The notes: generated by a model from the sequence alone, not told the origin. A stretch of DNA of 34,361 bases from Reclinomonas americana ATCC 50394 (GCA_048213135.1 PS015204.1:1-34361); one strand, 5' to 3'. Shown: positions 1,266 through 33,796, numbered from the stretch's first letter. A program made the numbers and translations.

Positions 1266-1300
1266 CTTTTCCTCCCTTTCCCATCCCACCCCCCACTCAC

Positions 1301-3195: not shown

Positions 3196-3233
<38 letters not shown>

Positions 3234-9862: not shown

Positions 9863-10554
9863 TCAACTGTTCGATCTGCTGTCCATCATTTGCAAAGCAC
9901 CAAGTCTAGCACCGACGGCATCGATGCCGCCATCGCCGCCAGCAGGAGCGCCGCCGTCACCGCCAGCAGGAGCGCCGCCGTCACCGCCAGCAGGAGCGCC
10001 GCCATCGCCTCCAGCAGGAGCGCCGCCATCACCGCCAGCAGGAGCGCCGCCATCGCCGCCAGCAGGAGCGCCGCCATCGCCGCCAGCAGGAGCGCCGCCG
10101 TCACCGCCAGCAGGAGCGCCGCCGTCGCCGTCACCATGTATACCACCGTACGCAATCAACTTAGTCAGCAGAGCGTGAATGACAGGCCGCTGAGCAGGGT
10201 TGCCGGCCGCGACTGCGGCGTTGGTGGCGGCCGCGACGTAATTGTCGTTCAGAACAAATTGTTGGATTGCAGCTCTGTCGGCGACGGCTTGCACTTGGGT
10301 TTTGGGCTGAATACTGATTGCGGTTGTGTCGTGGTCTTCCAACGCAGCATAAAAAAGAATTGGGAGTCCCAGCCGCGCCCACATGCGACGTCGGACAGTG
10401 CCAGCTTGTATTTCGGTCATGTATGCTCCTCGCTCGATGGTGAGATTGAGACAGTACATGTCCGCGTTGGGATTGGCAGTCATGTACAGAGCGACAGCGC
10501 CGCGAGCCACCGAACGCTTTCCGTGATCATCAACAGCTGTCTGCATGATGTCGC
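9863..10554 (-). CDS. Accessory ORF or last exon of unknown function, with a (GGAPAGGD)8 C-terminal tail
   Basis: 227-aa ORF preceded by a CAG acceptor at 10555-10557. The repeat-unit variants are all synonymous in this frame. Confidence 0.6.
9926..10126. repeat. 24-bp coding minisatellite, 8 copies
   Basis: Unit GCCGCC(A/G)TC(A/G)CC(G/T)CCAGCAGGAGC. Confidence 0.95.
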
Positions 10555-11231: not shown

Positions 11232-14200
11232 TCACTTTTTGCCCCTCGCTGACTCACGTGGTGCAGCGGCTATCGCGGCCGGCTTGCGCCGAGCGGCAAC
11301 AGCAGCACGTCGAGCACTGGAACGTGCACGGGCGTCCATCGTCGTATCCACAGGAACCTGGCCCCACGCACCACCGCCGGCATGCCACGCATACAGTTCG
11401 AATTCGTTGTCTTTGCGTGATTCCACCCATGTGCCGCCTTGCGGAGCTCTTGAATCGCCTTTCGGCGCCACCGCGCCGCAGCCTCTTCTACGTCAACGTC
11501 GTCGTCATCCTCCTCCTCCTCCTCCTCCACCTCATCCACATTCCTCGCTCCATTCTCCTCGTGATCTTCGCTCTCCTTCTCCTCTTCGTCCTCTGCGCAC
11601 GCAGCCACCTCGTCACCGCCGCAAGCAGAGGCTGTGAAGCTGTCACTCGCGCTCGACCGAGTCGCGAGTAGGTGGGTGAGCGAATGAGGAGCCGCCGCAC
11701 TTGCACTCGCCATTGATTCGTGGCTGTGGCGACTAGGACGTGGTTGCTGTCGCCGCGGTCGCAGACGAGCGAGGATCAACGCCTCATCACCAGCAATAGT
11801 TGAATTCCCGCAGTCGTCGTCGTCGGCGTCGGGATGCTCGACGCCCCACGGCAGTGGGCCCCAGTCTTTCACCAGTGCATCGAACTGAAAACGCCTACCA
11901 TCCAGTCGATTGTAGCGGTCGTGGAGGAAACAATTACCATCTTCTCCGGCCGCGGTGTAGCGGTGCTGTGCACACATTTCACGCGCACGAATGCAGTAAG
12001 CAAGCAGAATCACACATGTATACGGCGACAAGGGAATTACCTTGATGGCGAAGCACCGATTACTGCCATTGCGCTTGCCAGCCTCACGATGCACCGAACA
12101 TTCTCGACACATGTGCCAGAGCTGCGCAAAGCTGGACAGCACTTTCACGTCGTCGATGATCACAGCATTCGCCAGTCGGTACCTGTGTCGCACGCGCAGA
12201 AGTACGTGAGACGACATGCGAAACAATCATCCTCGGTGGCCTCGCACACACCTCTGTGGCGATGTCGGGGTGAGCCGAGGCGTTGTACAACGCAAAGCAC
12301 AGAGCCGCCGAAGTGGTATCCTGTCCGGCATCGACAGCAGCACGACGCACACAAAGCAGCGTGTCAGTGGATCAAAGCGCGCCTCGCCTGCTTCGTCGTA
12401 CACTGGAATGTACGGACGGTACGCCACCATGTACCGCTCGCGCTCGAGTGGCTCGGAGGCCCGCACGTGACGCCGTCGGCCAGTGTAAACCCCTCGATCC
12501 GGCAGTGCAACACCGGGAGACTCGCGAAGCCCACTGTCTCCTGCAGAGCTGACGGCGCGTCCTTGCGCAACAGGCCGACCGACGCACCAGCGTTGATAAG
12601 ACTGTGCTTGCCGAACTGGATGCGACTGAACCGGGCCATCTGCAGTTTGCTGTGAAAACATTACAACGTAAGCACATGGCGAGTCATCATGCACGACGAG
12701 CACAGCCACGCACCGGCCGTCACCAAAAAAGCATTTTCGGTCTGCCGCAACCGAAAACTTGATGTTCTCTTCTGGCACACCAGACGTTCTGCTCAGTTGC
12801 CGCAGTTGGTAGTCGGCCAGACGCAACACCTTGTTTCGGTTCTGCCACACAAACTTCGTCGTCGGCGGCGGTCAGCGTTGCGAATAACGGCATCGTGCAC
12901 TCGCGTCGTTTGAGCCAGCAGGCAAACGCTGGGTTGTGTCGGATAGCCGCAAATTGAGCCCCGACAGTCACGCCATCAACACAGACGCCTCGAGCAAACA
13001 AGTCCACAAGACCGCTCGTTACGCGGCGCTCCAGCACGGCAACATATTCGTTCTGGTGATTGCTCTGCTTCAAGTCGCGACGCTCCTCACTGCGCACACC
13101 GCCGACACGCTTGTTATTATGCGCACCGCAACAGCACAGCATCTAACGAGCCCCCATGCGCAACTGGTGTAGCTTCTCGCCAACTGCCTCGGACACGTAG
13201 CAGCACATGCCAGCCTGCTCCTCCTGCTGGAGAGAGTGAGCCAGTGCGTGGGTCTTGTAGGATTCGACGGATACACCATCGCCACACGCTCTGCGCATAC
13301 GTGGTCGTGCCGTGAGTGAGGAGCGTGATCACAATTGCGCGGCATTCGACGACTCAACTCACCACCAATGACGGCTCGCAGATACCAAATGGTTCGCGCG
13401 TACGCTGCATCGTCACTGCTATCCCGATGAGTGGCCATCGTGTGCGAATAGTAATCCGCCAGCGCCGGAAAGAGCAGCAAAGCTGGCTCATCCTCCATCA
13501 ACGTGAACAGCTCGGCCTCCGAATACGACGGACAGTACTTGACGAGCACCGCTGCGTGAAGCGACCATTCTCAGTGTGAGTGCTCACGCTCAACTCCGAA
13601 TGCATGCGTGTGTGTATGTGTGGCTTGCAGCTGGCTGGAAACAGCCTCACCTCGCAGTGCAAACATGATGACATGCGTTACGGCGATCCAGTCTCGTCCA
13701 AGGAAGGAACCACAGTTGTTGGCGAATGAGTAAATGACGCGAGCCAGTGTCGGATCGTCGCTAGACATGGCACTTATGAAATCGGCCAGGTCCGACATCA
13801 TCTGGCCGACGATGCTCTTCTCGTCGACGAGACGCAGAAAGTAGGTCTCGAGTGCGGCGCGGAAACGGACAGCAATGCCCTCAGCAACCATGTGAAGGTC
13901 GATGGGCAGCAAGATGTCTCGATGAACCTGCATGTGTCGGTTGTGAGTTTTTGAGGGCGAGGGAAGATCTCAAACACATACACAGGCACGCACGTTAAAG
14001 TCCGGCAAGTCGGTGACGAGTGCCGATGCAGGGTTCCTGTCACCTGCCACACCCAGTATAACCGACATCTTCCTCTTCGCAACCACTTCACGTGTGTGGT
14101 CTAGATTGCGCCAAACCACCTTCGGTCGCACACCGACAAATTGGTCGCGGACAACGACAGGGTGCGGCAGTCTGCGGGCAGTGCATAACATTCGATCCAG

Positions 14201-16309
14201 TCCTGCAGCCAGCATGCACCATTGTGCAAGTGAGGATTACGCAGCACAATGGGAGTGCTCCAATACACACACTCACCATGGCACCACCAGCAGTGTAGCT
14301 GGCGAATAACCGCAGCAGCCTCCTGCGCCTCAGGGCCGTCGGCTGAGTGGAACAGCAGGTCGGCTACCACCCACAACTTCCGGCCATTGATTTCCGCCAC
14401 AAAGCCATTTCGAAGCCGGTTCATCAAATTGGTGAGCTGTTTGTATGCTGACATGTTGCTCGTCTCTGCAAGACCATTCTCGAGCGTAAGCACCTCGAGC
14501 GTAAACACGGCGCATCACTGCCCGCGTATGCGCACCTGGTGGCGTGAGACCAACGCACGGGAAGTAGCGGGATTTTCCAGAGCGCAGCTCATCGGCCGGC
14601 CGATTGACAATCGCCAGGTGCAATGCACCTGTTGGTCGCTGCGCGCGTGTGCTCAGTGACTCTGCAGCAGCGTGACAACGAAAACAGTCAGTGCACGCAT
14701 GCTGCTGGCAACAAACAAGTCCACATCGCTCACCCATGAGATCATCATAGTCTGTCTTTACAAACAATACCACCACTTCGTCCGCGCCGGCCTCTGTTGC
14801 CCGGACCTCCATTGTGTTGTCATACTGCAACCAAGAGAATCACTCTCTCTTGGTCAAACAAACTGCGAAATAAGCAGCCGAGAACAACAGCAGCCTACCG
14901 TTAGCGCGACACCACTCTCAGTGCCGCGAATCTGATCGTCCGTGCATTGCACAAAGGCCATCTTGCCGCCGGCAACAACATTTGTCGGAATGACGCACAG
15001 CAATGGGACGCTGCGTGGACGATCGGCGGAAAGTATGTCCACTGGAAACTCGTCCGAGCACCGTCCCGGGATTGAGTGTGACTTCCACAACAGCCGTCGT
15101 TGACGGATGTCTCGGCCACACCAAGAGGCAAGCAAAGCGCTGAGCCACATCTGCTGCTGGTTCACCCCAAACACGGACAGTATTCTGCCGTGCAAAGCAA
15201 TGCTTGTCAGCGCTACTGCAGGAGACAACAATCAAACATGAATTGGCGCAACTGAGGGATACGGATGGCTGTCAAACAACCACAATTGCACCACGGTTCT
15301 GTTGACTCCGTTGGGCCCCACCTGCCACATGCGCAAGAGTACACGTTGGCAACGCGAGATGCATGCCAGCACAAACGACAGTGGATGATGATCAACAACT
15401 CAACGACATCCCACGAATTCAGCACCTTGGCAATCACGTCCGCGCCGTTAACAGCAGCGCACACAAAAGAGTTCTTCCAGAGAGCGACGCGCTTGCCGTT
15501 CCCGAGGGTCGCATACGTGACAAGAGCATGCAGCTCCTTCGTCTTCACTCGCGCCCCTGTCATGGGCCCGTGACGAATAACGCTGCCGGGTGTCTGCGGA
15601 GGTGCCGTCACGGGGAGCGGGCGACACACACACTGGCGCGCGTTGAAACACACAATACCTTGCCAGCAACATGCAAGTGACGAGGTGTGAGGCTATCCAG
15701 TGTACCAGGCAGTGCCAGCTGACGAGTAATGGCCTTCTCCAGCCGCATGTAGTGGCCTGGTTGCTCGTTGAAATGCTTGACGCTCTCCACATACTCCGAC
15801 GCCGCGAGCCCACAAATGTGCTCAACTTGCACCGCCAGTCGGATATCTTCGGGGTGGTGTCCTTGTTGAAGTTGGCTCGGGGATCCGTGAGAAGCGCATA
15901 AAGCAGCTCTTGTTGGCTGTGACTGAGTTTCACCAGCTCGATGAATTGCATGAGAAGGGCGCGTTCGAGTGATTTGGCAGGCGCGAACGGGTTGTCGGGC
16001 GGAATGAGTTTCTGTGCGCACAGGCATACTCGTGATCAGACAGACGCATCACCAGTAGAAACAGGATGACGCTCACATGCGCACGTACCATCTGCTTGGC
16101 AGTGAATTCCTCAATCATGTTTACAACGCGCTGATGCTCCTCGTCGGTGAACGCCTCCAGCTCGGCAGCAGCCCGCTTGAGGTCGCGCTGAAGCTCTCGC
16201 TCGCTCTCAGCAGCGGCGTACGCCTCATAATCATAGTTCTCGTCCTCGTCCTCGTCCGAGCTCGGCTCAGCCTCTTCCTCGACGCACACATAGTCTGCAT
16301 CACCCACAA
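11232..16309 (-). pseudogene. Degenerate spliced DDE transposase (CMC/Plavaka-like)
   Basis: Acidic N-terminus. Intron 16012-16088 leads into KLIPPDNPFAPAKSLERALLMQF. Then LFVKTDYDD (candidate first D), LFHSADGPEAQEAAAVIRQLHCWWC (second D plus CxxC), HRDILLPIDLHMVAEGIA (D..H motif), KQSNHQN, and a C-terminal LWHMCREC. Frameshifts are present, e.g. near 15808. Confidence 0.65.
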
Positions 16310-17249: not shown

Positions 17250-18123
17250 ATGGACGAGAAACGCGAATTCGCCGTGGGCGCCGCCGACAGCCTCCCTCAA
17301 GCCGGCGGCGACACCGACGGAGCTGCAAGCAGCAGTGCCGCACCAGCAATCACCCACGATCCAGAGCTCATCAAGCGACTAAAGGTCTCTCATTATGTGC
17401 GCACTCTCATAGTGTACTCGTTGATTGCTGCTCATATATCGCGTGCACAGCTGGAGGACGCCATCTCAATCAAGATATGGGGTCTGCTCGAGGACTACAG
17501 CGATGAGGGCCTTGATGAGCGACGCCGCAAGTACGCATTCTCTTTGCCTAGTGTCGCCCATGCAGTCGCGATCTCTAAAAAAAATTCGTGCGCGCGCGCA
17601 GATTCGCGCAGCTGGCCGTGCAGCAAGGCTTCCTGTGGCACGAGCAGCAGCACTCAACGTGCCTCGTGGCCAGTGGCTCGCGGCAGGCGTTGTACACGGG
17701 CGAGGACGATGAAACGATGGCGACAATTCTCCGAGTGTTGGAGGCTGGGGCGGAGCAGGCGCGTGCGGAGCTCGATGCGTACTTGGTGCAGACGGAGGCG
17801 ACGTTGGTGGTGCGCGAGGAGGCGATGTCGGGGGAGGCGGAGCGGGTGCTGCGGGCGAGCTTTGAGCAGCAGCCGGCCAAGGGCGCGAGTGGGCGGTGGG
17901 CGAGCTTGCCGCTGATGTTGCAGGGGAATACGGTGTGTGTGGAGTGTTACGCCTCTCTCTCTTTCCTCCCCTCTCCCTTGCTCTTACTTGGTTGTTCTCG
18001 CTGTTCTGTCATTTCGTTGCTCGTTCTCCCTTCTCTGCCCTTTTGTCGGCCACGTTTTTCTCGCGCTTGCTCTCCTCCTTGCNNNNNNNNNNNNNNNNNN
18101 NNGTTCGTCGTCTCGTCTCTCCT

Positions 18124-18173
<50 letters not shown>

Positions 18174-19518
18174 CCTCGTGTCCCCTTGCACTCCCGTCTT
18201 ACACTCTCCCGTGGCTCGAGCCGTTGCTCTTCCTCTGTTGCTCTCCTCCGTTGCTCTTCCCCCTTGTTCTCCGCCCTTGGTCCCTCCGCCCTTGCTATCC
18301 CCTCTTGTATCTCTCCTTGCGCGCGCTCTCTCTCTCTCGTTTGCCTTGCACTCCGCCCTTTTCAGTTGCTCTCCTCTGTTGCTCTTCCCCCTTGCTCTCC
18401 CCCTTGCTCTCCCCTTGCTCTTCCCCGTTGCTCTCCCTTGCAATTCCCCCTTCTCTCCGCCGTTGCTCGCTCCGTTGCTCTCCTCCGTTGCTCTCTCCTC
18501 CCTTCTCTCCTCCCTTCGCTCTCCCCCCTTGTACCCTCCTTGCGCGCTCTCTCTCGTTCCCCCTTGCTCTCCCCTCTTGCTTTCCCTTGCTCTTCCCCCT
18601 CTCTTCCCCTCTCTTCCCCCTTGCTCTCCACCGTTGCTCTCCCCCTTGCTCTCTCCCTCTCTTCCCCCTTCTCTTCCCCTTCCCTCCTCCCCCTTTGCCC
18701 TTCCCCCTTTGCTCTCCCTCCCTCACCCCCTTTTCCCTCCCTCCCTCGCCCCAGGACCCCCTCGCCGCCACATTCTTCCCCCACACCTCGGCTCTCATCG
18801 CCGAGGTGCATCGCGTGGCACACGCGCGTTTCGCCGACCGCGATCCGCCGATCAAGCTGCCGGTGTTTGGCGGCTTCCAGCTCATGTACGCGCCCACCCG
18901 CATCCGCCCCTACTGCAGCATCAGCAACGGTCTCGTTCGCTGCGTGGTCAATCTCTCCGACAACTCGGCCTTCCAGCACGTGGTCGCCGGCGTGCCGGTG
19001 ACGCGCATGCAACGCGGGCAGGCGTTTGCGTACGATCCCTCGTTTGAGACGTCGTTCGAGGTCAACGGGCCCACGTCGGCCACGTGCCGCATGGTGCTGA
19101 TGGTGGATGTGGCGGCGCCGTCGTTGAACGACGAGGACGCGTCGGTGCTGCTCGACCGCTACAAGTGGCTCGGCATGAGTTGCGTGGCCGCACCTATACA
19201 TTCTCTCCTCCTCCTCCTCCTCCCACTCACTTGTGACGGATAGGCACGCTGCTCGGCGCCACGGCTCCGTTCCTGCGACACCAGCGTCTGCGCGCTCTGG
19301 TGCGGCACCCCGACGATGCCAGTCAGGTGGTGCTGCGGCCGGAAAAGGACATTGCCGACGCCCTCGCCACGCACATGCCCGGCCTCCGCGGTTTCATTCC
19401 GCAAGGGCCCGATCAGCCGCCCGCCGTTGGCGCCACCTCGATTGAGATCAATGGGCAGTTGCTCATTTTGCGCGATGCCACTGGTGCGCCGATGGCCATG
19501 GCGCCGCTTCCGCAGTGA
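17250..19518 (+). CDS. Aspartyl/asparaginyl beta-hydroxylase (AspH/LpxO-type 2OG-oxygenase fold) family protein lacking the Fe-binding His residues
   Basis: Exons 17250-17384, 17451-17530, 17602-17932, 18755-19178 and 19244-19518 join in frame. Motifs: GRWASLPLMLQG, FPHTSALI, FQLMYAPTRIRPYCSISNGLVRCVVNL, GQAFAYDPSFET, RMVLMVDVAAPSL. Confidence 0.8.
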
Positions 19519-19855
19519 GACGTAAAGGGGAAGCGAGGTGTGAAGAAGGGGATGTTAGGGGAAGGGGGGAAAGAGGGGAAGGGAGGTGTGGGGGGAAGGG
19601 AGGTTGGAGGAGAAGGAGAGAGAGAGAGAGGGCGAAGAGAGGGAGGGAGGGAGGCGGGCGCGTTTAGAAGTAGGTGTGAGACATTGCAGAGTTGCTCTCG
19701 ATTGCCTCCCCTCCTGCTGTGGCAAGCAGCTTCGGGTTGTGGTGATTGGGTGGGAACTATTGGCCGTACACGCCAGGGTGAAGAGAGAGAGAGAGAGAGT
19801 GAGTGTGAGAGAGAGAACGAAGTCACATTATTTCCTGATTAAGTGTTCGAAGTAT

Positions 19856-20480
19856 CTCCGCTGACCAGAGAGAGAAAGAGAGATAGAAGTGTGGGATTTC
19901 CACGCTCTCGAACTCGAATTCTGATCCGGAGCTGCATCGCACTTGATAGCCTCCTGCTGCGGCAAGGGGTTTGAGCGGTGTGGTGGATGCAGCACGTGTT
20001 TCTTTCAAAGGCCTTCTGCAGTTGGTCGAAGAGAGAGAGAGAGAGAGAAACCAGATCATGTCCCGATATCATCTCGGCGCTTGCTTCGGCCGGAGAGTTG
20101 ATCGGTCCCACAGTGTGGCGCAGAAGTCCTTTCCAGATGGCTGCTGGCAACGACTGTCTCCACATGCTCCAAAGACAAGAGAGAGAGAAAGCGAGAGCCA
20201 GAGAGAAACGATGGTATCCGAATGTTAATCTCCGTCGACTTCTGCTGCTGCAGTGCGTTGACCGATTCTGTTGTGTGGAGAGGACGCTTTATCTAGAGGG
20301 CTGCTGGCAGCAGTTGACTACTCGCGCTCCGCTGACAAGAGAGAAAGACAAAGAAAAGACATCGATCATGTCCCGATATCGATTGCTTCTTGCTTCCTGC
20401 TTCCTGCTGCGCGTTGGTCGGTTCTGTTGCGTGCAGAGTACAGTACTACTAGAGGGCAGCTGACAGCAGTTGACCACGCG
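19856..20480. repeat. Diverged tandem array of ~155-bp units (about 4 copies)
   Basis: GATCATGTCCCGATATC at 20054 and 20364. GAGGGC(T/A)GCTG(G/A)CAGCAGTTGAC at 20296 and 20452. CTCCGCTGAC(C/A)AGAGAGA at 19856 and 20327. Confidence 0.8.
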
Positions 20481-20858
20481 ACGTCGCGCCCCGCCGACTG
20501 CAGAAGCGTTGCCGATCGCGACCGCTTGATTTCGATATCAGTTACCGCGTCCTGCGTTTTTCTCACGTCTCGATCGCATTCCGCTGGCTGCCTTGAAGTA
20601 GTGGACTTCCGAACGACGAGGCCTCCTGCTATGCCGCCTTCGCCATCACTTGAGGGAAAACGTCGCGCGTGTCTGTGTCCCGGAAAAAAGTTCTCGCGCT
20701 CGTGATCTAATCCGCATTTCGTCAACTCTTGCACTGCTGAGAGAACAGACAGGTACGCACACATACTCACACACAACAGCAAAACACACACTCACATTCG
20801 CCCTGCGCGTGTTCGCTTTTTCACAAAATTTCTGGACACACATATTGCCTTCTCAGAA

Positions 20859-21415
20859 ATGCGCGCGATCCTCTCACTGCTCCTTGCCACGGCCCTGCTC
20901 ATTGCGTGCTCCGGCCACGTGGCACACGCCGGCACGGTGGTTCCCCCGGAAATTTTGCTGCGCGAGGTGCAAGCCGCCACCATGGGAGTAACCCTTGAGG
21001 GGCAGTCGACGGAGGAGATGTTGAACATGGAGGCGGCAGTGGCGGTGGAGATGCTCTCGGCCCGGGCCATGCCGGAGATTGAGGATGGAGTGACGCCGGT
21101 GCGCTCGCGCGAGGCGGTGTTGTCCAAGGCGGCGCTGGGCGCGATGCAGAATTATGGGTGGTCGTATTATGGGCAGGTGGGTGGCATGGGGGTGAAGGAG
21201 GGGGAGAAGGTGGAGGGAAATATGAGTGATTTTGTGCATCTTTCTCCCTCTTCTCTTCCTTTGCCTTGTTCTCGTTCTTGTTCTTCAACTCCCTCCATTC
21301 TCTCTCTCCACCTCCTTCTGCTGTTTGGTTTTCTGCTTGTTCCCTCCATTCTGTTCTTGTTCTTATTCTCGTTCTCCTCGTTCTCGTCCTCGTTCTTGTT
21401 CATCTTGATCCGCTC

Positions 21416-21451
<36 letters not shown>

Positions 21452-23371
21452 CCTCTCTCTCGTCTCGAATCCTTCGTCTCTCTCTCTCTCTTTCTCTCTC
21501 TCTCTTTCTTTCTCTCTTTCTCTCTCTTGCTTTCTCTTGGGGTTTGCTCGTTCTTGTTCTTCTTTCTCCTCCTCCTTCTGTTTACTTTCCGTGGCAATCT
21601 TGTTCCTTCTCGTTCTCCTTGTCATTCTCCTTGTTCATTTGTGCCGCCCTCTTTCTCCCCCCTCATTCTCACTTTCTTGCGTTGTCCGTCTTCTCCTCCT
21701 CTTCCTCCGTCTCCGCCTCTCCCTGTCGTTCTCCTCCTCCTTCTGCCGTTTGGTTTTCTGCTTGTTCTCTCCATCCCGTTCTTGTTCTTGTTCTCGTTTT
21801 CCTCGTTCTCATTCTCCTTCTTGGTCATCTTGTTCCGCTCTCTCTCCTTGCGTTTTTGCTTGTTCTTCATCGCGTTCTTGTTTTTGTTCTCGTTCTCCTT
21901 CATGTCATTCTCCGTGTTCATGGTTTTCTCTCTCCCCTCCCTTGCGTTGTTCTTCTTCTCCTCCTCTTCCTCCATCTCCTCCCTCTCCCTGTCCGTCTCC
22001 TCCTCCTTCTGCCGTTTGGTGCTCTTCCTTCTGGTGACTATTGTGGCTGACTTTGCGTCATTGTTCCGTCTTGCAGTGCGATCCTCGCTGGGCCGAGCAC
22101 CAGCTCGGTTTGTGCACGTGCGCTTGTCTGCGTGTGATTTCTCTGCTAACCTTCTCCATCAAGGAACGTGCAACCTCACCATCTGCCAGGCCGGCTGTGC
22201 CATGAGGTTTGCGCGCCGTGTTATCGTGTCTCTCGCCACATGCGCTCATGGTGCTGTTTCTCTGCCATGACCAGCTCGACTGCCATGATGGTGCGTGGGT
22301 CTTGTAGTTTTGATGTCGCACGTACACACGCGGCGTAACTTTGGCTTCTCGTGACATCCTTGCTCTCTCTCTCTCTCCCTCTCTCCTTCTCTTCCCTCTC
22401 TTCCTCCCTCCCTCTCTTCCTTCTCCCTCTCTTCCCTCTTTTCCCTTTCTCTCTTCCTTATCTTCCTCTCTTCTCTCTCTGTCCTCCCTCTCTCTTTCCC
22501 TCTCTTCCCTCTCTCCCTGCCATGGCCACTCACCCACCCTTCTCTGACCACGCTCAGCTGAACACCAAGGGCGTGAACGTCAACCCCGACTCGCTCAACA
22601 GCTGGCTGAAGTCCAACGGCGGGTGCGTTTTTGGCACTCCTGGCTGTGAGAGAATCCTCTCCTTTCTTCCTCAACCAACTCTCGCGTCGCTCTGTGTACA
22701 GCTACGCTGACGGCTGCGACATTTACTGGTGAGAGATCGTCTCTATTTGCCTATCATTGCTGTCTCAGAGTTGTCTCACTGGCATTTTTTCGTTACAGGG
22801 GCAAGGTCTCCCCTCCTCACGCCTCACTTCCAGTCGGTGTTGTCGATGCTCACTGTGTGCTTGCGTGACAGGTCGACGCCTTTGGCAAGACTTCGTTCCA
22901 GGGCATTGAGAAGGCCGCATTCGAGGAGATTTGGTGCGTGTCCTGCTCTTCTGTGCTCTCGCCTGCCTGTCCCTGACTCACTTGCCGCTCTGATCAGCAA
23001 TGGCGTCAGCAATGGCCACGGCGTTGCGTTCGATTACCGCTGCCCCTCTCATTCGTTTAATCTAGAACAACTCACACCGCACGTTTGTTTCCGAGCAGAT
23101 CATCCTGAACGTGCGCGGCGGTTCGTTATCCTGGTCGCCAAATCGCCTGCGTCATGTCACACTCATTCTCTGTGTGCAGGAAGCCACTGGGTGCTCGCCA
23201 CCGGCTGCAGCAATGGCGCCATCGATGTGCACGGTTGCGTGACTGTGGCTTCTCTGATGCACTGTGAAAATGCGCACTCATGCATGCTTGATGCACCACC
23301 ACGCAGACCCGTACTTCAACGTCAGCTCATACACGATTGGCGAGGTCGTGCAGGAGGCTGTCTACCACTAA
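20859..23371 (+). CDS. Secreted C39-like (papain-fold) cysteine peptidase, paralog A, 12 exons
   Basis: Exons 20859-21176, 22077-22107, 22164-22206, 22275-22290, 22558-22622, 22702-22728, 22799-22805, 22872-22933, 22998-23022, 23099-23120, 23180-23233 and 23307-23371 join in frame. The product has a signal peptide, YYGQCDPRW, TICQAGCAMSSTAM (Cys), NPDSLNSWLKSNGGY, GSHWVL (His) and VHDP (Asp). Confidence 0.9.
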
Positions 23372-24058
23372 ACATCAGCAGCACCTGCTGCTCACTCTGT
23401 CGTGGGATGTCTATTTTTCCTTCCCCTTCCCTCCACGCTCTCATCTCAATCCAATGAACAGCATGGGAGCGTGTTGGTTTATGTGGCTTGTCGGAGGTCT
23501 TGACTCTTTTCTTGCGCTGTCTCTCTGTCTCTTTGCTATCCTCGATTGTGACGGTTTTTGCTGCTGCTGTGGTCTTCATTGTTCTCGTCTTCTCGTCTCT
23601 CTCTCGTAGCGTTCTCATTGTCGCAAGTCACCCATTTCGCAGAATACTAGTCAGGCATTGCGGACCTCCTCTGCATCTTCTCTTCTCTCCCTGCACTCTG
23701 TCGTCCCTTGTGTTTGAAAATAGCTGTGGTCTTCCTCGTTTTCTTCTTCTCGTCTCTCTCTCGCCAGGCTTTCGTCGTATGAGTTACTCAGAATACATGT
23801 GCTGCTGCTGAGTTCTCCGTCGCTCTTTATCTCTCTCTCTCTCTCTGTCTCTCTCTCTCTTTCACTCACTCGGGCAATTGTTCCAGATCCAATCAGAATA
23901 TCGTCTCTTTCTCTGCCTCTCATGTCGAGGTTAGTTGCTGCTGCTGCAGCCGTGCAGACTGCTTCTCTCTCTGCCTTGAGTATCTCTTCCTCATCCCATA
24001 TCACTCCCTCGGGAGAGTCGTGCTTGCTTTCGTTGTGACCGCGGACTTGAAGACACCT

Positions 24059-24190
24059 TCGTTCACTCCAATCCTCCTCCCAAGTCTCACTCACAGTCTT
24101 CTACCGCCCCTTGACTCCTCCTTTCCTGCCACTGTCTCTCAACTCTGCTCCCCTGCTTTACGTGTGTGCGTTGTGGAGCAGAGGAAACAT
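24059..24190 (+). repeat. ~130-bp element, inverted copy of ~26598-26716
   Basis: CTTGACTCCTCCTTTCCTGCCACTGTCTCTCAACTCT is the exact reverse complement of ~26635-26671, and the flanks also align. Confidence 0.9.
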
Positions 24191-24348
24191 AGTCTTTGTT
24201 TTCCCTCGTAGTTATCGTCTCTCCCTCTCTCGGGTCGCTCCCTCTCAGTATATCGCTGTTAGCCCCTCCCTTCGAAGCGATTGTTGTTGCTGTTGCCGCA
24301 CTGTGCCTCCCTCTTTAGGTCTCCCTCTTGCCGTCGACCTTCACTCTC

Positions 24349-24510
24349 TCTCCTTTTAGATCTCTCGTCTCAATCATCTTCTTTCTCCCTTTTCTCTCGC
24401 ACTGTAGTGTCCATCTACCCCCTTCTCTTTCTCCTTTTAGATCTCTCGTCTCAGTCATCTCCCTTCTCCCTTTTCTCTCGCACTGTAGTGTCCATCTTCG
24501 CCCTTCTCCC
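24349..24510. repeat. 81-bp tandem duplication
   Basis: TCTCCTTTTAGATCTCTCGTCTCA...CTCGCACTGTAGTGTCCATCT occurs twice. Confidence 0.9.
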
Positions 24511-24690
24511 TCATCCAAGTAACAAGGTATAGTTCGTCTTTTCATTGATCGATAACATTGTCGATCTCTTTTCTTCTTTTCTCTACAACAATAGTGACAA
24601 CAGGGGAGGGGGCGCAGAATGAGAGGGAGCAAGTGCTGCCTGCTGCCTCCGCATCTGCCTCCTCATTTTTTCCGTCATTTTGTACAGGAT

Positions 24691-25329
24691 TTAGGCCTCG
24701 ATGGCGTGGTAGAACTCGTGAATGTGGGCGTCGAACTCGTCCTTCTGCACCTTGCCATCGTGGTTCCTAGTAGGGAAAGGGCGGTGAGTTGCACACCTCA
24801 AGGAGGATGAGGAGGCGGAGGCAGACAAGACTCACGTGTCGAGCAGGTCGAACTCGGCCTGCAGCGTCTGCTGGTCAGCCTTCATGACCTTGGCCTTCTC
24901 CTCGTCCGAGGCGAGCTCCAGGCTGCGGCGCACCAGCGACGTCAACAGCGCACTGAGAAGACGGAAGAGGAGGAAGTCAGTGACGGACGGTGGTGTGCAG
25001 AGAGAGGAGCAGTACACGCTGGTCGCAACTTGCACTCCTCGCGGTCAATGTAGCCATTGCCGTCAGCATCGAAGGTCTGGAGTGCGAGTGAGCAAGAGTG
25101 AGAGGTGGAGAGATGAAGAAAAGGTCACGGAAAATACGCAACTCGCCACAGCTCGTCGACCTCCACCTGGGTGAGCTTGCGAGCGCCCGGGCGGTGCAGC
25201 ACGTGCCTGTGGGGAGAGAGAGAGAGAGGAGACGAGGGGGTGGTGAGCCAGTTGTCCTTCTTCCACGCACAACGACAACACACGAAACTTGGCCATGTTG
25301 GTGATAATCTCGGCGAGGGAGGCAGCCAT
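24691..25329 (-). CDS. Small calcium-binding protein with two EF-hands (~114 aa), 5 exons
   Basis: Exons 25289-25329, 25143-25206, 25030-25076, 24836-24952 and 24691-24766 join in frame. The loops are DADGNGYIDREE and DTNHDGKVQKDE. Confidence 0.9.
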
Positions 25330-25652
25330 GATGATAGATGTGTTTGAAAGTAGTGAGGGAGGGAGGTGGTCTTTGCGTTCAGAAGGCGAGAAAGATTGAG
25401 TGTCAAGCTGGCCGGCAGTCGCCTTTTATGCGCCCGGCCGCATGCCAATGTGACTTGGCCTCCTCATGAATCGATTTGTCGTTTTTGCGCACAGTCTCAG
25501 TGGCGACCACTGGAGGCACTGGTGCAGCTCCCATTGGCTGCTCGGTTCCACTGCGTGGTGCATTTTGCCAGCGAGAGTGTGTGTGTGGGAAGGGGTGTAT
25601 TATACCGCGATCTTGTACAAATTGGTTGCTGCGAACGGCAGTTTTTCATTTT

Positions 25653-26216
25653 TCAGTTTATTCCCCCATGATTGCGTTGCAATTGCGTGGCCGCCAGGAC
25701 TGATGTGCGCGGGTGGGTATGCATGCCGGTGTGAATGTGCGCAACCGCCCTTGCATCACTCCCTCACTGTTGCAAGGGGCGCGTGCCGGCCACCACGTCG
25801 GTGGATGCTGGATTTGGAGGAAATTGTCGACAATATTTTCGAACTCAACCGAGTGCTCCGTCGGCATGCGAAGCCTGGTTCGTTTCTGGCATGAAGGGAT
25901 CGGACCAGGAGAAGATGGTCCCACGGACCTGGAGACGAGTCGAAGTTCCAGAGGGAACGCACACCCTCGTGATGACGTTTTGGACTTGGTCTTGAAGACA
26001 GCTGTTGCTTGTTTGTTGGTGAATGAATTGTTGTTGTGGAACAAGAGAGTGCAGACACAACACGTGACAAGCATCGGATTGCGTTCACTTCAAGAGTGAT
26101 TACTCATCGTCGCCGCCTCCCATGTCTGGCATGCCGGAGAACGACAGGTTGAAGCCGGGCGAGTTGGTTGCCGTGGAGTGTTGGTCAACGCCACCGCTGT
26201 AGCTGGTGCTCTTGAC
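25653..26216 (-). CDS. 3' exons of an unknown spliced gene
   Basis: Exons 26104-26216, 25965-26001, 25906-25928, 25768-25874 and probably 25653-25699 give VKSTSYSGGVDQHSTATNSPGFNLSFSGMPDMGGGDDDCLQDQVQNVITRVRGTIFSWLRMPTEHSVEFENIVDNFLQIQHPPTWWPARAPCN. A possible upstream exon lies near 28765-28832. Confidence 0.55.
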
Positions 26217-26324
26217 CTGGGAGAGGGAAGGGAGGTAAGAAACGGGAGCATAGAGCGGGTCGTGAACGAGTTGTGTCTCCTCTTTGTTTCCACCAACAAG
26301 CAAGTGAAGGAGAGCAGGATGGAG

Positions 26325-26357
<33 letters not shown>

Positions 26358-26474
26358 AGAGAGAGACAGGGAGAGAAGTATAGAAGGACAATGACTGGAG
26401 TGAACGAATGCAGTGGTTTCGAGATCTAGAGCGACATGTCATTCCTTTGCTTCCACCAACACGCAAGTGAGGAA

Positions 26475-26881
26475 GACGTGAGCAGAGCAGAGAGTGAGAG
26501 GAAGGGGCAGGAAAGGAGATGAGAGAAGACTGTGGGCGAGAGACTTGGAGTTCAGAGTGAAACAAGACGGCAGCGGTTTTGTGAAGAGCTTGTCTTGTCT
26601 TTCCTCAGCTCCACCACACGTATAGGAGGGGAGTAGAGTTGAGAGACAGTGGCAGGAAAGGAGGAGTCAAGCGGTGATAGAAGACTGTGAATAAGACTTG
26701 GAGGATGAGTGAACGACGGCAGTAGTTTCGTGAACGGCATGTCTTTCCAGTGCAATGTCGAGCAGCGCAGGGCACAGAGAGAGAGAGGGACAGGAAAGGA
26801 GATGAGGGTTGAGAGTGAAAACGAGAAGGGGAATGACTTGCCTTTCCAATGTAATGGGGAGCAGAGCGGAGTAGAGTAGAG

Positions 26882-26934
<53 letters not shown>

Positions 26935-27220
26935 GACGACGACGAAGAAGAGAGAGAGACGACGGTACGGTACGGTAGGTAGGTAACGGTAAAACCGGTA
27001 AAAACTAAAACGTAAACGTACGTACCTTTACCCCTTTTTACCCCCTTTTCCCCNNNNNNNNNNNNNNNNNNNNNNNNNNNNNNNNNNNNNNNNNNNNNNN
27101 NNNNNNNNNNNNNNNNNNNNNNNNNNNNNNNNNNNNNNNNNNNNNNNNNNNNNNNNNNNNNNNNNNNNNNNNNNNNNNNNNNNNNNNNGTAGGAGGACGA
27201 GAGAGGAGGTAGAAGTAGAG

Positions 27221-27276
<56 letters not shown>

Positions 27277-27853
27277 AACCGTGCCAGTAAACGAGATGAG
27301 AGACTCGGAGGGTTCAGAGTGAAACAAGAAGGTGAACGACTTGCGTTTCCTGTGCTGTCACCGGCATAGAGCAGAGAGCAGCGTAGGATACAGAAAGAGA
27401 GAGAAGAGAGAGCGGGACAGGAAAGGAGTCAAGAGATGACTTGGAGGAGAGTGAAACGAGAGGGCACTGGTTTCGGGATATGACTTGACTTTCGTTCGCT
27501 TAAGCTTCACGAACAGCGAGCAGAGCAGTGCAGGGCACAGAGAAAGAGCGAGAGTGAGAGAGTGAGAGTGTGAGAGAAGAGAAGAGAGAGAGAGGAACAG
27601 ACGACACTGGCAAAGACATGGAGGGTTGAGAGTGATACAAGAAGGTGAACGACTTGTGCTTCCTTTGCTTTCACCTTCACAGAGCACAGCAGTGCAGGGT
27701 ACAGAGAGAGAGAGGAGGGCGGGACAGGAAAGGAGTCAAGTGATGATTCGGAGGGATACGAGAGGGCGCTGGTTTCGGGATGTGACTTGACTTTCGTTCG
27801 CTTCACCAGCAGTGGGCAGAGCAGTGCAGGGCACAGAGTGAGAGTGAAAGTGA

Positions 27854-27893
<40 letters not shown>

Positions 27894-28559
27894 AAGAGAG
27901 AGAAGACGAGAGACGAACGAACGACGGAGGTAGGTAGAGTAGTAACGAAGTAGTACGTACGACGTAACGTTCGTTTCGTTTCGTCGTCGTCGACCGACGA
28001 CGANNNNNNNNNNNNNNNNNNNNNNNNNNNNNNNNNNNNNNNNNNNNNNNNNNNNNNNNNNNNNNNNNNNNNNNNNNNNNNNNNNNNNNNNNNNNNNNNN
28101 NNNNNNNNNNNNNNNNNNNNNNNNNNNNNNNNNNNNNNNNNNNNNNNNNNNNNNNNNNNNNNNNNNNNNNNNNNNNNNNNNNNNNNNNNNNNNNNNNNNN
28201 NNNNNNNNNNNNNNNNNNNNNNNNNNNNNNNNNNNNNNNNNNNNNNNNNNNNNNNNNNNNNNNNNNNNNNNNNNNNNNNNNNNNNNNNNNNNNNNNNNNN
28301 NNNNNNNNNNNNNNNNNNNNNNNNNNNNNNNNNNNNNNNNNNNNNNNNNNNNNNNNNNNNNNNNNNNNNNNNNNNNNNNNNNNNNNNNNNNNNNNNNNNN
28401 NNNNNNNNNNNNNNNNNNNNNNNNNNNNNNNNNNNNNNNNNNNNNNNNNNNNNNNNNNNNNNNTTAGTTGTTTGTTGGTTCGTTGTTTGTTTGTTTGTTT
28501 GTTGTTGTCGTGTGGTCGGTCGTCGTCGTCGACGTACGGTACGACGAGAGAGAGAGACG

Positions 28560-28590
<31 letters not shown>

Positions 28591-28690
28591 GAGGGACAGG
28601 GGGGCATGAAAGGAGATGAGAAAAGACTGAGAGTGAAACGAGAAGGCGCTGGTTTCGGGTTATGACAACACAGAGCGCGCAGGGTGCAGC
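26475..28690. repeat. Degenerate purine-rich satellite of ~100-150-bp units, interrupted by gaps
   Basis: Recurrent blocks GCAGTGCAGGGCACAGAG, GGGACAGGAAAGGAG, GAGAGTGAAAC(G/A)AGA and CTGGTTTCGGGA(T/TG)TGACTTGACTTTCGTTCGCTT. Confidence 0.8.
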
Positions 28691-29032
28691 GAGAGAGAGA
28701 GAGAGAAGAAAAAAACAAAGAGTGGGCCACCACGCACACACACCTGATCATTAGTGCCCAACACAGTGGTGTCTGTGGACGCGTGCGACGATCCCTTCTC
28801 AATGCTTGTGGTGGTGCCCATGATGTCGAGTCCTTGTTCTCTCTCTCACACAACGACAACAAAGAAACAAATGAGGAGCACTGCGAGAAGAAAAGTGAGT
28901 GTTCAGAAATGTGAACATGCAGTCAAAATGCGAGAAGTTGCACGCGAGCCCGTTGCATACTGCGAGACATTCTCTCGCTCCGCTGCTTACAAACAGTAAC
29001 TGCATGCACGACGAACAACCACCACCAGTTGC

Positions 29033-29902
29033 ATGCATATGCCTGATATCGATATTGCAATTGATCATGAAAATCGAGAATGCATTCAACCCTTTTTGAT
29101 GGCGCACACACTGTAAAACCAATTCATCCACCACATCTACGCGCTCAACAGTTGCGTGGATGATCAAGAGATCACGTTTCGACGATATTGTGAAGTCGAC
29201 GTCGACGTCGTTCGTACTGTAGATCTCGGAGCTCGAGCCTCTCTGATTTTTCGATTCATGTTGGAGATGTGCGACTCGGGCGATCGCGCGGTCGAGGAGT
29301 GGGCAACGTTTCTTGGGCTGGATCTTGACGTCGGCCTCATTCCTCGGCTGTCGGCGTCGTCCATGGGCAGCGACATCGATGGACTCGCGGTCGCCTTTGC
29401 GAGAGTCGGGTCCGTCGCCGATGTCAAGGAGATGCCCATCCACGATGCCAGAGCAGCGCTTCTATCCCTGGGACTCAACGAGGGTGCGTCGGTGTCATTC
29501 TCTTCTTGCGATGCAGTAGTTGTTGATGTGCGTGCATTGCTGGCAGAGGAGATTTCGACTGTACAACAGGAACTGCAGCGCGTTTTCGTGAGACACATTC
29601 TCTCTCCGCTGAGGGGAACCATTGTTGATCGCATCTGCATCTTCTCGCCGACATCAGCTGTCGCGCGACAACGCCGTACACAAGAAATTGAGAAGCTCCG
29701 AGTGGACTCTGCAACCCCTCCTGCAGTCCTCGCGTCGCTCGAGCGGCGGCATGCCATGGTGCGTGTGTCTCCGTTTCTCACGGGCCCCGGAATTATTACA
29801 TTCGACAACATATCGATCTCACTCCGGTTTTTACGCATGCAGCTTTCTGAGTTGTCGTTTGAGGCCTGGCTCAGCCTCGCAAGTGGCGCAGACGAGAAGT
29901 GA
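29033..29902 (+). pseudogene. Intronless ORF of unknown function with one in-frame TAA
   Basis: The 248-aa ORF extends upstream in frame through TAA 29114-29116 to ATGs at 29033 and 29039 (MHMPDIDIAIDHENRECIQPFLMAHTL*NQFIHHIYALNSCVDDQ...). Confidence 0.4.
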
Positions 29903-30169
29903 GGGAACCAGCCCCACCAGCAGCAAGGACACGCGCCGACAGCTGTGCTAATCCAAACAGGAATGCACTTTGTGGATCCGAACATGTACATTTGTCGCGT
30001 TTTCATTGCACATGAGGCGTTTTGTGTGTTTCGGAGCTCGAGCGCGCTGCGGCCGAACGCACCAAACCAGTGATTGCCTCCACAACCCACAACAGAACCA
30101 CGAACACGACGCAGCTATGTGATCCGACTCAGCCAATCAATCAACCAACCATACATTGTATCGTCCACC

Positions 30170-32686
30170 ATGCGCGCACCTCTCCTGCTGATTGCCACTC
30201 TCCTCGCCGTCCTCGTCGTCGCGGTGCACGCGCAGTCGCTCACCGAGGCACTGGACATGCACGAGCAGGAGGCACCAGTGGCACCAGTGCCAGCGCCAGC
30301 AGAACAGAAGGAGGAGACGAGTGGCGAGGTGGTCACTGTCAAGTACAACGACAACGTGAACCCGCGCACGGGCGAGTGGTCGACGGAGGTGCCGTTGTTG
30401 GGATGGACGTCGTTCAAGCAAGTTGCGGAGAGGAGGAGAGGGAGGGAAGAGGGAGAGGAGGGAGGAGGAAAAGGGGAAGAGAAGGGGAAGAGAAGGGGAA
30501 GAGAAGGGGAAGAGAAGGGGAAGAGAAGGGGAAGAAGAAAGGGAAGACTGTGAGTGAGTGAGTGACTGGCGAGAGAGAGAGAGAGAGAGCGTACGTATGT
30601 GTGTGTGTGTGTGTGTTAGTGTGAGACAAGAGTTGTGCATCCACAAGTGCTGAGAGACAGTGTGTATGCTTGTGTTGCACCTCTTTTTGTTGCTCTTCTT
30701 CTCCTCCTCCTCCTTCTCTCTGTGCACACGCGCAAGATGCTGTGTGAGTGTGCGAGAAGTATTTGTTTTGTTGTCTGACTTTTTTTGTGTGTTTTTTTGC
30801 AGTGTGGTGGCTCTTGGGGCAGCAACACGCTTGGTGGCAGTGCGTGTGGAAGCACGATTTGTGCCAAGGGATGTGCCATGACGTTGCGTGCATGAGAGAG
30901 AGAGAGAGTGTGGTGTGATGGATTTCTTCTCGCACTCAGTTCCCACACTTTGCATTCACGGCACTCTCATGTGCTGTCTCTCGCAGTCTCTCAGACAGTC
31001 TCTCTCACACACTCTCTCACTCTTTCTCACCCACTCTCTCTCACTTTCCCTCCCATGTTTCCGGGTCTCTATGTCCCACCTTTTTTTCCTCCCTCTCTCT
31101 CTCTTTGTCAATTCTCTCATGTAGTTCTGTTGCCAGTGTCTGTTGCATGTCCCTCCTGCTTCTCCTTTGCACCTCTGTCCCCTGTGCCATCTGTCTTTGT
31201 TCTTCTTTCTTGTTCCTTCTGCCTTTCTCTGTTCCCGTCTTGCTACCATCCCTCGTGCTGTCCCCCCTCGCTCACACCCTTGCATTTCTCCTTCCCTTGT
31301 CGCAGCTCGGTGGCCATGATTGTTGCGTTTTCCGTCCCCGGCTCCTCCTCTTTTCATATCGCGCTCACCGTATCCGCACGCAGGTGGCCAGCCGCGGTGG
31401 CAACTACAACCCGGGCACGCTCAACGACTATCTGACCAAGAACGGCGGGTGAGTGCACACGGTCCTCGCTGCTGTCGTGTTTGTCGTGATTCTCATGCGA
31501 TGATGAACACAGCTACTCGGGCTGCGCGATTGTCTGGTAAGTCTCTCGCTCTCCTGCGTGTCCTTCTATCGCTCTCCTGCGTGTCGCACTGTCGCTCTCC
31601 TTGCGTGTCGCTCTGTCGCTCTCCTTGCGTGTCGCTCTGTCGCTCTCCTGCGTGTCGCTGTCGCTCTATCGCTCTCCTGCGTGTCGCTGTCGCTCTGTCG
31701 CTCTCCTGCGTGTCGCTGCCGCTCTCCTGCGTGTCGCTGCCGCTCTCCCGCGTGTCGCTGCCGCTCTCCTGCGTGTCGCTGCCGCTCTCCTGCGTGTCGC
31801 TGCCGCTCTCCTGCGTGTCGCTGCCAATCTCCTGCGTGTCGCTGTCGCTCCCTTGCGTGTCGCTGTCGCTCCCTTGCGTGTCGCTGTCGCTCCCTTGCGT
31901 GTCGCGCTGTCGCTCTCCGTGCGTGTCGCTCTGGCGCTCTCCTGCGTGTCACTGCCGCTCTCCGGCCTCTGACTCTCCTGCGTGTCGCTCTCCCGCTCCA
32001 TTCCCCGTCACTCGCCTCACCCGCTTCTCACCGTTCGTCTTATTCTCGCAGGAGCAAGGCACGTGCTCGCAACCGACGGCAAGCCATCCCACTCCTCTGC
32101 TGATCTCGTGCATTGCATTCGCAGGTTGACGCCCTCGGCAAGACCCACTACCAGGGCCAGAAGATGCTGAGCAACTCGGATCTGTGGTGCGTGTGTGCTG
32201 AGCGAAGTCGTGCTGCTGTTGTTTCCTTGCGACTTATCTTTGCCTGCAGCTCATACGTGGCCTCGGGCAAGGGAGTGCGTTCTATTGTTGTTTCTCTCGC
32301 ACTGCCTCTGCATTGACTCACATTCGCCCTGCACAACCCAGGTGATTCTGAATGTCCGCAATGGTACGCCCCCTCACTCTCTCCCTCCGCTCGTTGATAC
32401 TCATTTTGTTCTCACCCTTTGTCATTCTGCATGCAGGCGGCCACTGGGTTCGTCACCCTCTTTTCCCACGCTCTGCCTCCTCCAACCGCTCATCCAACTT
32501 TCATTCACAGGTGCTGGCCACTGGATGCCCGAGCAGCGGCGTCATTGCCGTCAACGGTGCGTTCCTCTGATCGCCATCCGAACATGCTTCCCTCACCTCA
32601 CCTCACCCTTCCCCGCCACAGATCCCGGCTTCTCGCAGTCGACGTACAAGTACTCGGAGGTCAGCCGCATGGCCATCTACTCTTGA
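30170..32686 (+). CDS. Secreted C39-like cysteine peptidase, paralog B, 12 exons
   Basis: Exons 30170-30421, 30803-30882, 31306-31321, 31384-31448, 31513-31536, 32052-32058, 32125-32186, 32250-32274, 32342-32363, 32437-32447, 32511-32556 and 32622-32686 join in frame. The product has a signal peptide, SFKQCGGSW, TICAKGCAMTSVAM, NPGTLNDYLTKNGGY, GGHWVL and VNDP. Confidence 0.9.
31545..31995. repeat. ~21-bp intronic minisatellite
   Basis: Unit CTCTCCTGCGTGTCGCTG(C/T)CG repeated within intron 5 of peptidase B. Confidence 0.9.
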
Positions 32687-32865: not shown

Positions 32866-33796
32866 TTACAGCTTCAAGTCGATCAGATCCTTCTTGGTGA
32901 CGACACCGACCAGGCGCGCGTGCTTGGCGGTGATGAACACGCGGTTCACGTTCAGCATGGAGAACACAAAGTAGACCTGCGTTGATGTGAAGGGAGAGAC
33001 AGGGAAGGGATTAAGAGGCAAGGGGTGAGCGACAGCGCGAGATGGGCAAGGGGTGAGCGGTAAAGGGAGAAGGGTGGCAGAGGCCAGGGGCGACGCCGCG
33101 AGAGAAGGGTGACAAAGGAAGGATTGAGCGACGCCGCGAGAGAGGGAGAGAGAGGCAAGGATTGAGGAATGCAGAAGGAGAGGCAAGGATGACCAAGGGA
33201 GTGAGAGGCAAGGGGTGTGCGACCGCCGCGAGGGAGGCATGGATTGAGCAACACAGCGAGAAAAGGAATTGACAGACAAGGGAGAGTGACACCGCGAGAG
33301 AGAAGGGAATGAGAGGCATGGATTGGGTGACACCCTCAATCGAAGAGTGACCGAAGCAAGGAGTGGGCGACAATGCGAGAGAAGAGATTGCGAGTCAAGG
33401 ATTGAGTGACGGGAGAGAGGAGCATGACCGCTCACCTGCGAAATCGGTGCCAGCTCATTCATCAAGAAGGGCGAGGGCGTCAGCGGAACGCGCAGCACTC
33501 TGCGCAGCGCTTAATGTCAGAATCAATAGGGAGAAAAGGATCGTCTCCTTTTGTGCGCACCCTTCGCCAGCCTGTCTCTCCAGGTTCGATGCGTCCGAGT
33601 AAATCGACGCGGCAATCTCCACGTTCTCGGCTCCTTCCGGCGGCGGTGCGCCAACAATAGCGAGAGAATCCATCCTGTGCGTTGTGTATTCGTGAGTTGA
33701 AGTCAGCTTGGTTGACTACCACTGTCCATCGGCACGCAACGAAGTCCCGTGCGAGAGCGACGTTGGCAATATCGGCTCACCGGTGCGCTCGTCGGT
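32866..33796 (-). CDS. 3' end of a CBS-domain protein, most likely a CLC chloride channel/antiporter
   Basis: Exons ~33720-33796, 33561-33675, 33436-33499 and 32866-32976 give VPLTPSPFLMNELAPISQ/VYFVFSMLNVNRVFITAKHARLVGVVTKKDLIDLKL*, typical of the second CBS domain of CLC proteins. The gene continues upstream. Confidence 0.75.
33005..33425. repeat. Degenerate intronic minisatellite
   Basis: Recurrent GCGAC(G/C)CCGCGAGAGA and AGGCA(A/T)GGATTG motifs. Confidence 0.7.

Follow-up and report, generated by a model that had tools for sequence, protein, structure and literature searches.

In a 34,361-nucleotide (nt) stretch of the Reclinomonas americana ATCC 50394 genome (GCA_048213135.1 PS015204.1:1-34361), called the window here in its whole length, many predicted introns begin with GTTGCG(T), or rarely GTTTCGT, rather than with a 5' splice site (donor) of the usual local form. 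The intron models indicate that these sequences are a genuine and abundant second donor class, accounting for ~30% of the introns in the window. With a donor this abundant, a further form would join the known shifted or bulged 5' splice sites; the sequence pattern is well supported within the window, and the register in which the donor pairs and any role of U1 or U6 are predictions made from it.

The main statistics refer to 41 introns, modeled by hand in seven cellular genes of this one 34-kb window; the genes designated G9 and G3 did not contribute, nor did most of G4 or the 5' part of G11. Twenty-seven donors have G at +5 and are mostly GTGCGT, GTGAGT, GTACGC, and GTTCGT; 12, referred to as shifted, combine T at +3 with G at +6, and none of these has G at +5 (11 GTTGCG and 1 GTTTCG); and 2 are AAG/GTCTC (the slash marks the exon-intron boundary). 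G at +5 and G at +6 are mutually exclusive (27 donors with the former, 0 with both, 12 with the latter, and 2 with neither; Fisher p = 1e-8). A model with independent positions predicts 0.5 GTTGCG donors, compared with the 11 observed (binomial p = 1.9e-12, n = 41); this comparison with a single-position donor model had been proposed in a preliminary description of the sequence, and its outcome favors the distinct class postulated there. With two sites in G4 included, GTTGCG is the commonest donor hexamer (13 donors, compared with 6 for GTGCGT and 5 for GTGAGT), and the two strands of the window together contain 27 copies of GTTGCG, of which 13 are predicted donors. For the heptamer GTTGCGT the predicted share is 9 of 12 copies, versus 6 of 36 for GTGCGT. 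The shifted class is found in six of the seven cellular genes.

The same description had proposed that a shifted donor equals the local consensus with one extra T, and this holds for all 12, in each of which the consensus is displaced by one base, with T at +3, G at +6, and no G at +5. The displacement extends rigidly downstream: T is found at +7 in 10 of 12 shifted donors and at +6 in 19 of 27 standard donors, and G is found at +8 in 5 of 12 and at +7 in 15 of 27, respectively. The two classes have the same median intron length (69.5 nt), and the branch-like CTCAY motifs of shifted introns match those of standard introns. When 10 of the 12 shifted introns were aligned (two long pepB introns were excluded), conservation was restricted to columns 1 to 7, and mean column identity was 41%. 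The lack of similarity beyond +7 indicates that the shifted introns are not copies of a mobile intron. Transposed, introner-like introns were rejected, as the 10 aligned introns lack similarity along their length and five shifted introns occupy old positions shared between paralogs.

The window is a gappy eukaryotic nuclear scaffold (~55% GC, 10 runs of N) with numerous (GA)n/(CT)n tracts; its typical introns are ~60 to 80 nt long and have a CAG 3' end and a CTCAY motif 15 to 30 nt before it. Every junction was placed from reading frame, paralogy, and codon statistics. The models were built by hand instead of with a codon-usage dynamic-programming gene finder, which skipped many exons of 7 to 65 nt. 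The genes concerned are as follows.

pepA, 20859..23371, plus strand: secreted protein with Cys/His motifs, 12 exons, 244 amino acids
pepB, 30170..32686, plus strand: paralog of pepA, 12 exons, 224 amino acids, exon 4 starting at 31384
G5, 17250..19518, plus strand: Asp/Arg-hydroxylase-like gene, 5 exons, exon 4 matching Pfam Asp_Arg_Hydrox (E = 5e-6)
EF-hand gene, 24691..25329, minus strand: two-loop protein, 5 exons, 114 amino acids
G1, 1300..4122, minus strand: RA_2 and FERM_M gene, interrupted by assembly gaps and modeled without its 3' end
G11, 32869..33796, minus strand: 3' part of a CBS-domain gene
G4, 11270-16310, minus strand: large, multiexon, transposase-like gene

The Q..C, H, and DP motifs of pepA and pepB resemble those of C39-like peptidases and mark the two as putative peptidases. 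The 14 shifted donors, comprising the 12 counted and 2 probable ones in G4, are the following, each with its three preceding exon bases in lowercase.

19179..19185, plus strand, tga/GTTGCGT: G5 intron 4, 65 nt; downstream frame favored by codon log-odds
23023..23029, plus strand, ggc/GTTGCGT: pepA intron 9, 76 nt; same position and phase as pepB intron 8 (GTGCGT), with alternatives 10 to 32 BLOSUM points lower
23234..23240, plus strand, acg/GTTGCGT: pepA intron 11, 73 nt; placed by paralog alignment
30422..30428, plus strand, caa/GTTGCGG: pepB intron 1, 381 nt; same position as pepA intron 1 (cag/GTGGGT)
30883..30889, plus strand, gac/GTTGCGT: pepB intron 2, 423 nt; same position as pepA intron 3
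31322..31328, plus strand, att/GTTGCGT: pepB intron 3, 62 nt; same position as pepA intron 4 (atg/GTGCGT)
25282..25288, minus strand, caa/GTTTCGT: EF-hand gene intron 1, 82 nt; its placement is the least certain of all
25136..25142, minus strand, cga/GTTGCGT: EF-hand gene intron 2, 66 nt; junction probably compatible with the hydrophobic spacing ahead of the EF loop
25023..25029, minus strand, caa/GTTGCGA: EF-hand gene intron 3, 77 nt; placed by the gene model
1646..1652, minus strand, gtc/GTTGCGT: G1, 60-nt intron, open in frame; additional to the original nine
1559..1565, minus strand, aga/GTTGCGT: G1, 63-nt intron with an in-frame stop; additional
33734..33740, minus strand, ttc/GTTGCGT: G11, 66-nt intron; additional, an upstream GTGAGC donor being out of frame
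15246..15252, minus strand, tca/GTTGCGC: G4, probable donor, frame compatible, with a CTGAC motif ~20 nt before the acceptor
13158..13164, minus strand, cca/GTTGCGC: G4, probable donor, frame compatible

The first nine sites are those of the preliminary description, and each was recovered directly after an exon end: eight GTTGCG and one GTTTCGT (minus strand, 25288). Its count of 9 shifted donors among 30 introns in four genes was likewise reproduced by the rebuilt models (11 + 11 + 4 + 4 introns). The three additional GTTGCGT introns (minus strand, 1652, 1565, and 33740) are each 60 to 66 nt long, with CTCAY and CAG. Seven GTTGCG copies were examined in G4: one is intronic, four fall in exons, and two, each GTTGCGC preceded by A, resemble donors. 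Two of the three unmodeled GTTGCGT copies, at 20426 and 29151 (both plus strand), are on the sense strand just upstream of pepA and G9, respectively; each is followed by CAG or TAG ~70 to 80 nt further on and may mark a 5' untranslated region intron of the shifted class.

Several lines of evidence favor cleavage directly before GT at these sites, i.e., paralog alignment, rare-codon use, and conserved residues. First, in the alignment of pepA with pepB, 99 of 253 columns are identical, and the two genes have 10 intron positions in common, with identical phases. Each of their five GTTGCG donors has, at the matching position in its paralog, a counterpart with G at +5 (GTGGGT, GTTTGC, GTGCGT, GTGCGT, and GTGCGT), which agrees with the paralog support claimed earlier for five sites. 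When all frame-keeping combinations of a GT or GC donor and an AG acceptor within 18 nt were enumerated, the modeled pair outscored every alternative at each of the five sites, by 10 to 32 alignment points. Second, the last exon of G5 has two open frames, and codon log-odds trained on the other exons are +24.7 for the modeled frame and -9.9 for its rival; the modeled frame requires the donor at 19179. An exhaustive HMMER search with exon 4 of G5 gave three weak matches (best E = 7.8e-8, query residues 73-118) that are uninformative for this junction, and a word-based protein search found no close relatives of this exon or of the FERM exon of G1. Third, general knowledge of EF-hands suggests that the modeled junctions of the EF-hand gene leave the hydrophobic residues on either side of loop 1 at their usual spacing. 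Cleavage one base later, as G/TT...AGN/, with the G kept in the exon and the acceptor moved by one base, was rejected, since such a junction would alter two conserved residues, the Asp of the DP motif at pepA intron 11 and, at pepB intron 1, the Cys that follows Gln. A loose scan for GT...CTNAY...AG was weakly discriminating (9 of 27 GTTGCG copies, compared with 12.6% of all GT).

The base preceding the intron also distinguishes the classes. G is present at -1 in 1 of 12 shifted donors and in 25 of 29 other donors (p = 4.6e-6), and the earlier observation that eight of nine sites lack it was borne out, their bases being A, C, G, A, C, T, A, A, and A. The sole shifted donor with G at -1, in pepA at 23234, has this G as base 1 of a conserved Asp codon. 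Conversely, A is found at -1 in 6 of 12 shifted donors and in 2 of 29 others (p = 0.004). This includes sites at which the base is free of the protein sequence: the Gln codon shared at the first intron of the pep genes is CAA before GTTGCG in pepB and CAG before GTGGGT in pepA, which are synonymous, and three of the six phase-0 junction codons of shifted donors (GGC, CAA, ATT, CGA, GTC, and AGA) end in A, whereas A occupies 5.6% of third positions overall (p = 0.003). Enrichment of A at -1 is what one-base-shifted pairing with U1 predicts, since U10 would then lie opposite -1; only in this register would A at -1 be paired with U10, and a bulged U predicts no such enrichment. Further, when the two classes are aligned on the conserved block, they differ only in the base before UGCGU, (A)G/GUGCGU compared with A/GUUGCGU, which is the pattern of the human shifted register. 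The -1 preference therefore appears to fit one-base-shifted pairing with U1 better than it fits a bulged U.

The best explanation, although the chances of its being right and wrong seem to us about evenly poised, is that /GUUGCGU constitutes a second class of 5' splice site at which U1 pairing is shifted by one base and cleavage still occurs before GU. The conserved block UGCGUG, which normally spans +2 to +7, would lie 1 nt further into the intron, and the invariant G would move from +5 to +6. In the shifted register, +1G would be opposite C9 of U1 instead of C8, -1 would be opposite U10, and +2U would be unpaired opposite C8. The cleavage site would then be set by GU itself at the handover to U6 and U5. 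Because the usual partners of U6 are +5G and +6U, U6 would likewise have to tolerate one extra, looped-out U at shifted donors.

Several findings weigh against this reading or the data behind it. The donors were folded with RNAduplex (14 shifted donors) against the canonical 5' end of U1, which may differ from that of this organism. Mean energies were -1.3 kcal/mol for shifted donors (range, -2.8 to +0.5) and -7.1 kcal/mol for standard donors. The best duplex was in the shifted register in 5 of 14 cases, in the canonical register in 1, and in other, spurious registers in 8, all of them weak and all subject to the choice of a canonical U1 sequence. The local preference for C at +4 (+5 in shifted donors) adds a second mismatch to canonical U1 in the shifted register. 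The -1 statistics come from a small sample (12 to 14 sites), and at several of these sites the codon itself dictates A at -1. Frame-guided choice of GT...AG pairs could have biased a hand-made set of junctions; the reading frame stays open through the G1 intron at 1652..1593, which may be translated as it stands, and the frame of the first EF-hand gene intron (GTTTCGT) depends on a 14-codon first exon supplying the ATG. Finally, one window cannot establish the genome-wide frequency of shifted donors. Given the weak duplex energies, a plain shift on canonical U1 alone is not thermodynamically convincing, and recognition may need proteins of the U1 small nuclear ribonucleoprotein (snRNP), a divergent U1 or U6, or selection driven by U6. 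The preliminary description had read these donors as evidence of a spliceosome that routinely uses two registers. A genuine, overrepresented donor class without G at -1 is upheld, and routine use of two registers is a prediction from it.

Weak pairing also counts in favor of recognition of a noncanonical kind, i.e., by a variant or second U1 or U6 matching GUUGCGU, or by selection that is mainly protein or U6 driven. GTTGCG is the commonest donor hexamer in the window and yet pairs ~6 kcal/mol more weakly with canonical U1 than do standard donors, and the dominant +4C of the standard class also mismatches canonical U1. Nearest-neighbor energies, however, disregard the proteins of the U1 snRNP, and no small nuclear RNA gene is present to supply a variant within the window, in which there were no Rfam matches to RNA genes, U1 and U6 included. 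Across eukaryotes, U1 is known to vary very little at its 5' end. We consider noncanonical recognition improbable as the explanation of the class. Its strongest form, in which there are two coequal donor "dialects" with distinct RNA partners, e.g., a second U1, perhaps with a matching change in U6, complementary to GUUGCGU, seems to us quite a long shot. If true, two partners would represent a third kind of spliceosomal intron recognition, beside the U2 type and the U12 type, and not sloppy pairing of a single U1.

Alternatively, U1 may pair in the ordinary register (+1G with C8 and +2U with A7), with the extra U at +3 (or +2) looped out from the helix with U1 and then from that with U6. This would retain all pairs of standard GUGCGU and require no mismatch at +2, and the bulge +3 (or +2) register has been validated in human cells (PMC4856993, Figure 1C legend). 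Bulge sites resemble an insertion of one nucleotide between +2 and +5 (PMC11162779), and an insertion-like sequence is what is seen here. Against this, a bulged U predicts that -1G, paired with C9, would still be useful, while G is found at -1 in 1 of 12 shifted donors and A is enriched, including at synonymous sites. Moreover, no bulged duplex was returned for any of the 14 donors with canonical U1. A bulged U is in our judgment doubtful.

Much less credible are two explanations that deny a shifted donor altogether. In one, the introns would be GC-AG introns that begin three bases later, GTT/GCGT, each adding one Val, or the two sites would be used alternatively in tandem. The GTT/GC reading is always in frame and is the runner-up at all five pepA and pepB sites, and one true GC-AG intron exists in pepB (aag/GCACGT). 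However, it adds a residue absent from the paralog in all five cases, at a cost of 10 to 18 points each, and would place GTT at the exon ends; this triplet is seldom used for Val here (4 of 70 Val codons, in a count that included a misframed EF-hand gene model). In addition, GCGTNN resembles neither the local consensus nor the one real GC donor, and the spacing expected from general EF-hand knowledge suggests that the hydrophobic pattern of both EF-hand gene helices would be broken. We regard this possibility as very slight. Equally hard to credit is an artefact of wrong gene models or of an assembly error doubling the T of GTGCGT: the scaffold is a draft with 10 runs of N, G4 has a frameshift near 15850, and the models are hand-made, but random misplacement cannot yield 11 identical hexamers, sequencing errors would not alter the -1 base or synonymous codon choice according to donor class, and the flanking exons are unbroken and can be aligned with those of the paralog.

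The proposed one-base shift has a precedent in human shifted-register 5' splice sites (Roca and Krainer 2009), at which +1G pairs with C9 of U1 and -1 faces U10, as described in PMC4856993 and PMC11162779. According to the same sources, experiments in human cells have established both the shifted and the +2/+3-bulge registers, and all noncanonical registers together are estimated to account for between 1.5% (PMC11162779) and 5.1% (PMC4856993) of human sites. Like the human shifted sites, those in the window consist of GU, an extra U, and then a consensus displaced by one base. At the human sites, cleavage stays at GU with U1 one base downstream, and the loss of the -1G requirement expected from this is seen here. 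They differ in that the human sites are rare, whereas one heptamer provides ~29% of window donors; in that the core is UGCGU rather than UAAGU, with a second mismatch to canonical U1; and in that the sites in the window are known from sequence alone. The window donors also resemble the +2/+3-bulge registers (Roca et al. 2012; Tan et al. 2016, PMC4856993) in being equal to the consensus with one nucleotide inserted between +2 and +5, but differ from them in the depletion of G and enrichment of A at -1.

The standard class has its own counterpart in Ostreococcus lucimarinus, for which Irimia and Roy 2008 (PMC2483917) give an atypical donor consensus, GTGCGTG. The standard donors here are similarly GC rich, GTGCGT(G), with C at +4. 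O. lucimarinus has a single strong consensus in the ordinary register, in contrast to the two mutually exclusive registers found within the same genes in the window. A full-text literature search found no published report of an abundant GUUGCG or shifted donor class in the texts that it reached.

The shifted donors are like U12-type introns in forming a second discrete donor class beside the major one. The U12-type consensus consists of an RTATCCTT donor and a TCCTTAAC branch site. Neither RTATCCTT nor TCCTTAAC was seen in the donor and 3' sequences, and the shifted introns combine GTTGCG with ordinary CTCAY...CAG ends; a U12-type assignment was thus rejected. Two further donors, AAG/GTCTC(C/T)C at 22806 and 17385 (both plus strand), have G at neither +5 nor +6 and may be of a third type, anchored in the exon.

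So far, shifted and bulged U1 registers have been known only from exceptional, rare sites in mammals, and minigenes were used to work them out. If such a site is the most frequent donor of a genome, that genome would offer a natural, high-throughput means of examining how the position of cleavage becomes uncoupled from U1 pairing and would also probe the slack tolerated by the helix between the U6 ACAGAGA box and the 5' splice site in the active site. Position-independent donor models in gene finders would miscall about one-third of the introns of such a genome.

Other features of the window concern its genes and repeats. The nearest language-model clusters of the RA_2/FERM_M gene, G1, are metazoan. 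Upstream of G1, at 4140-4980 (plus strand), there are about three tandem copies of a ~300-nt unit, seen by eye (Tandem Repeats Finder at a score of 150 reported none). They are followed at 4980-8350 (plus strand) by a degenerate non-long-terminal-repeat retrotransposon with long reverse-transcriptase-like open reading frames, frameshifts, and two 20-N gaps; its C-terminal Cys/His and KPD...E motifs are reminiscent of restriction-like endonuclease elements, of which it may be one. No Pfam match was found in the five stop-to-stop pieces of G4 that were scanned. The coding sequence of this gene seems to shift frame by 1 nt near 15850; it contains a cluster of Cys residues and motifs reminiscent of CACTA/KDZ-type transposases. 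A 24-nt coding repeat at 9926-10130 (minus strand; 8.5 copies) gives a small minus-strand gene a low-complexity tail of the GGDGGAPA type.

Repeats also occupy introns: intron 3 of G5 (18366-18723) is filled by a 12/23-nt repeat, and intron 5 of pepB consists mostly of a 21-nt tandem repeat (~19 copies, 31546-31963, plus strand). G9 (29259-29900, plus strand) has a single open frame across three segments that resemble ordinary GTGCGT/GTGAGA introns and that are either introns in frame or retained. A 7-nt microexon that encodes part of W-G/S-K is kept in both pep paralogs (GGGCAAG at 22799-22805 and GAGCAAG at 32052-32058, plus strand), and in pepB it is followed at 32059 by the only GC-AG intron seen.

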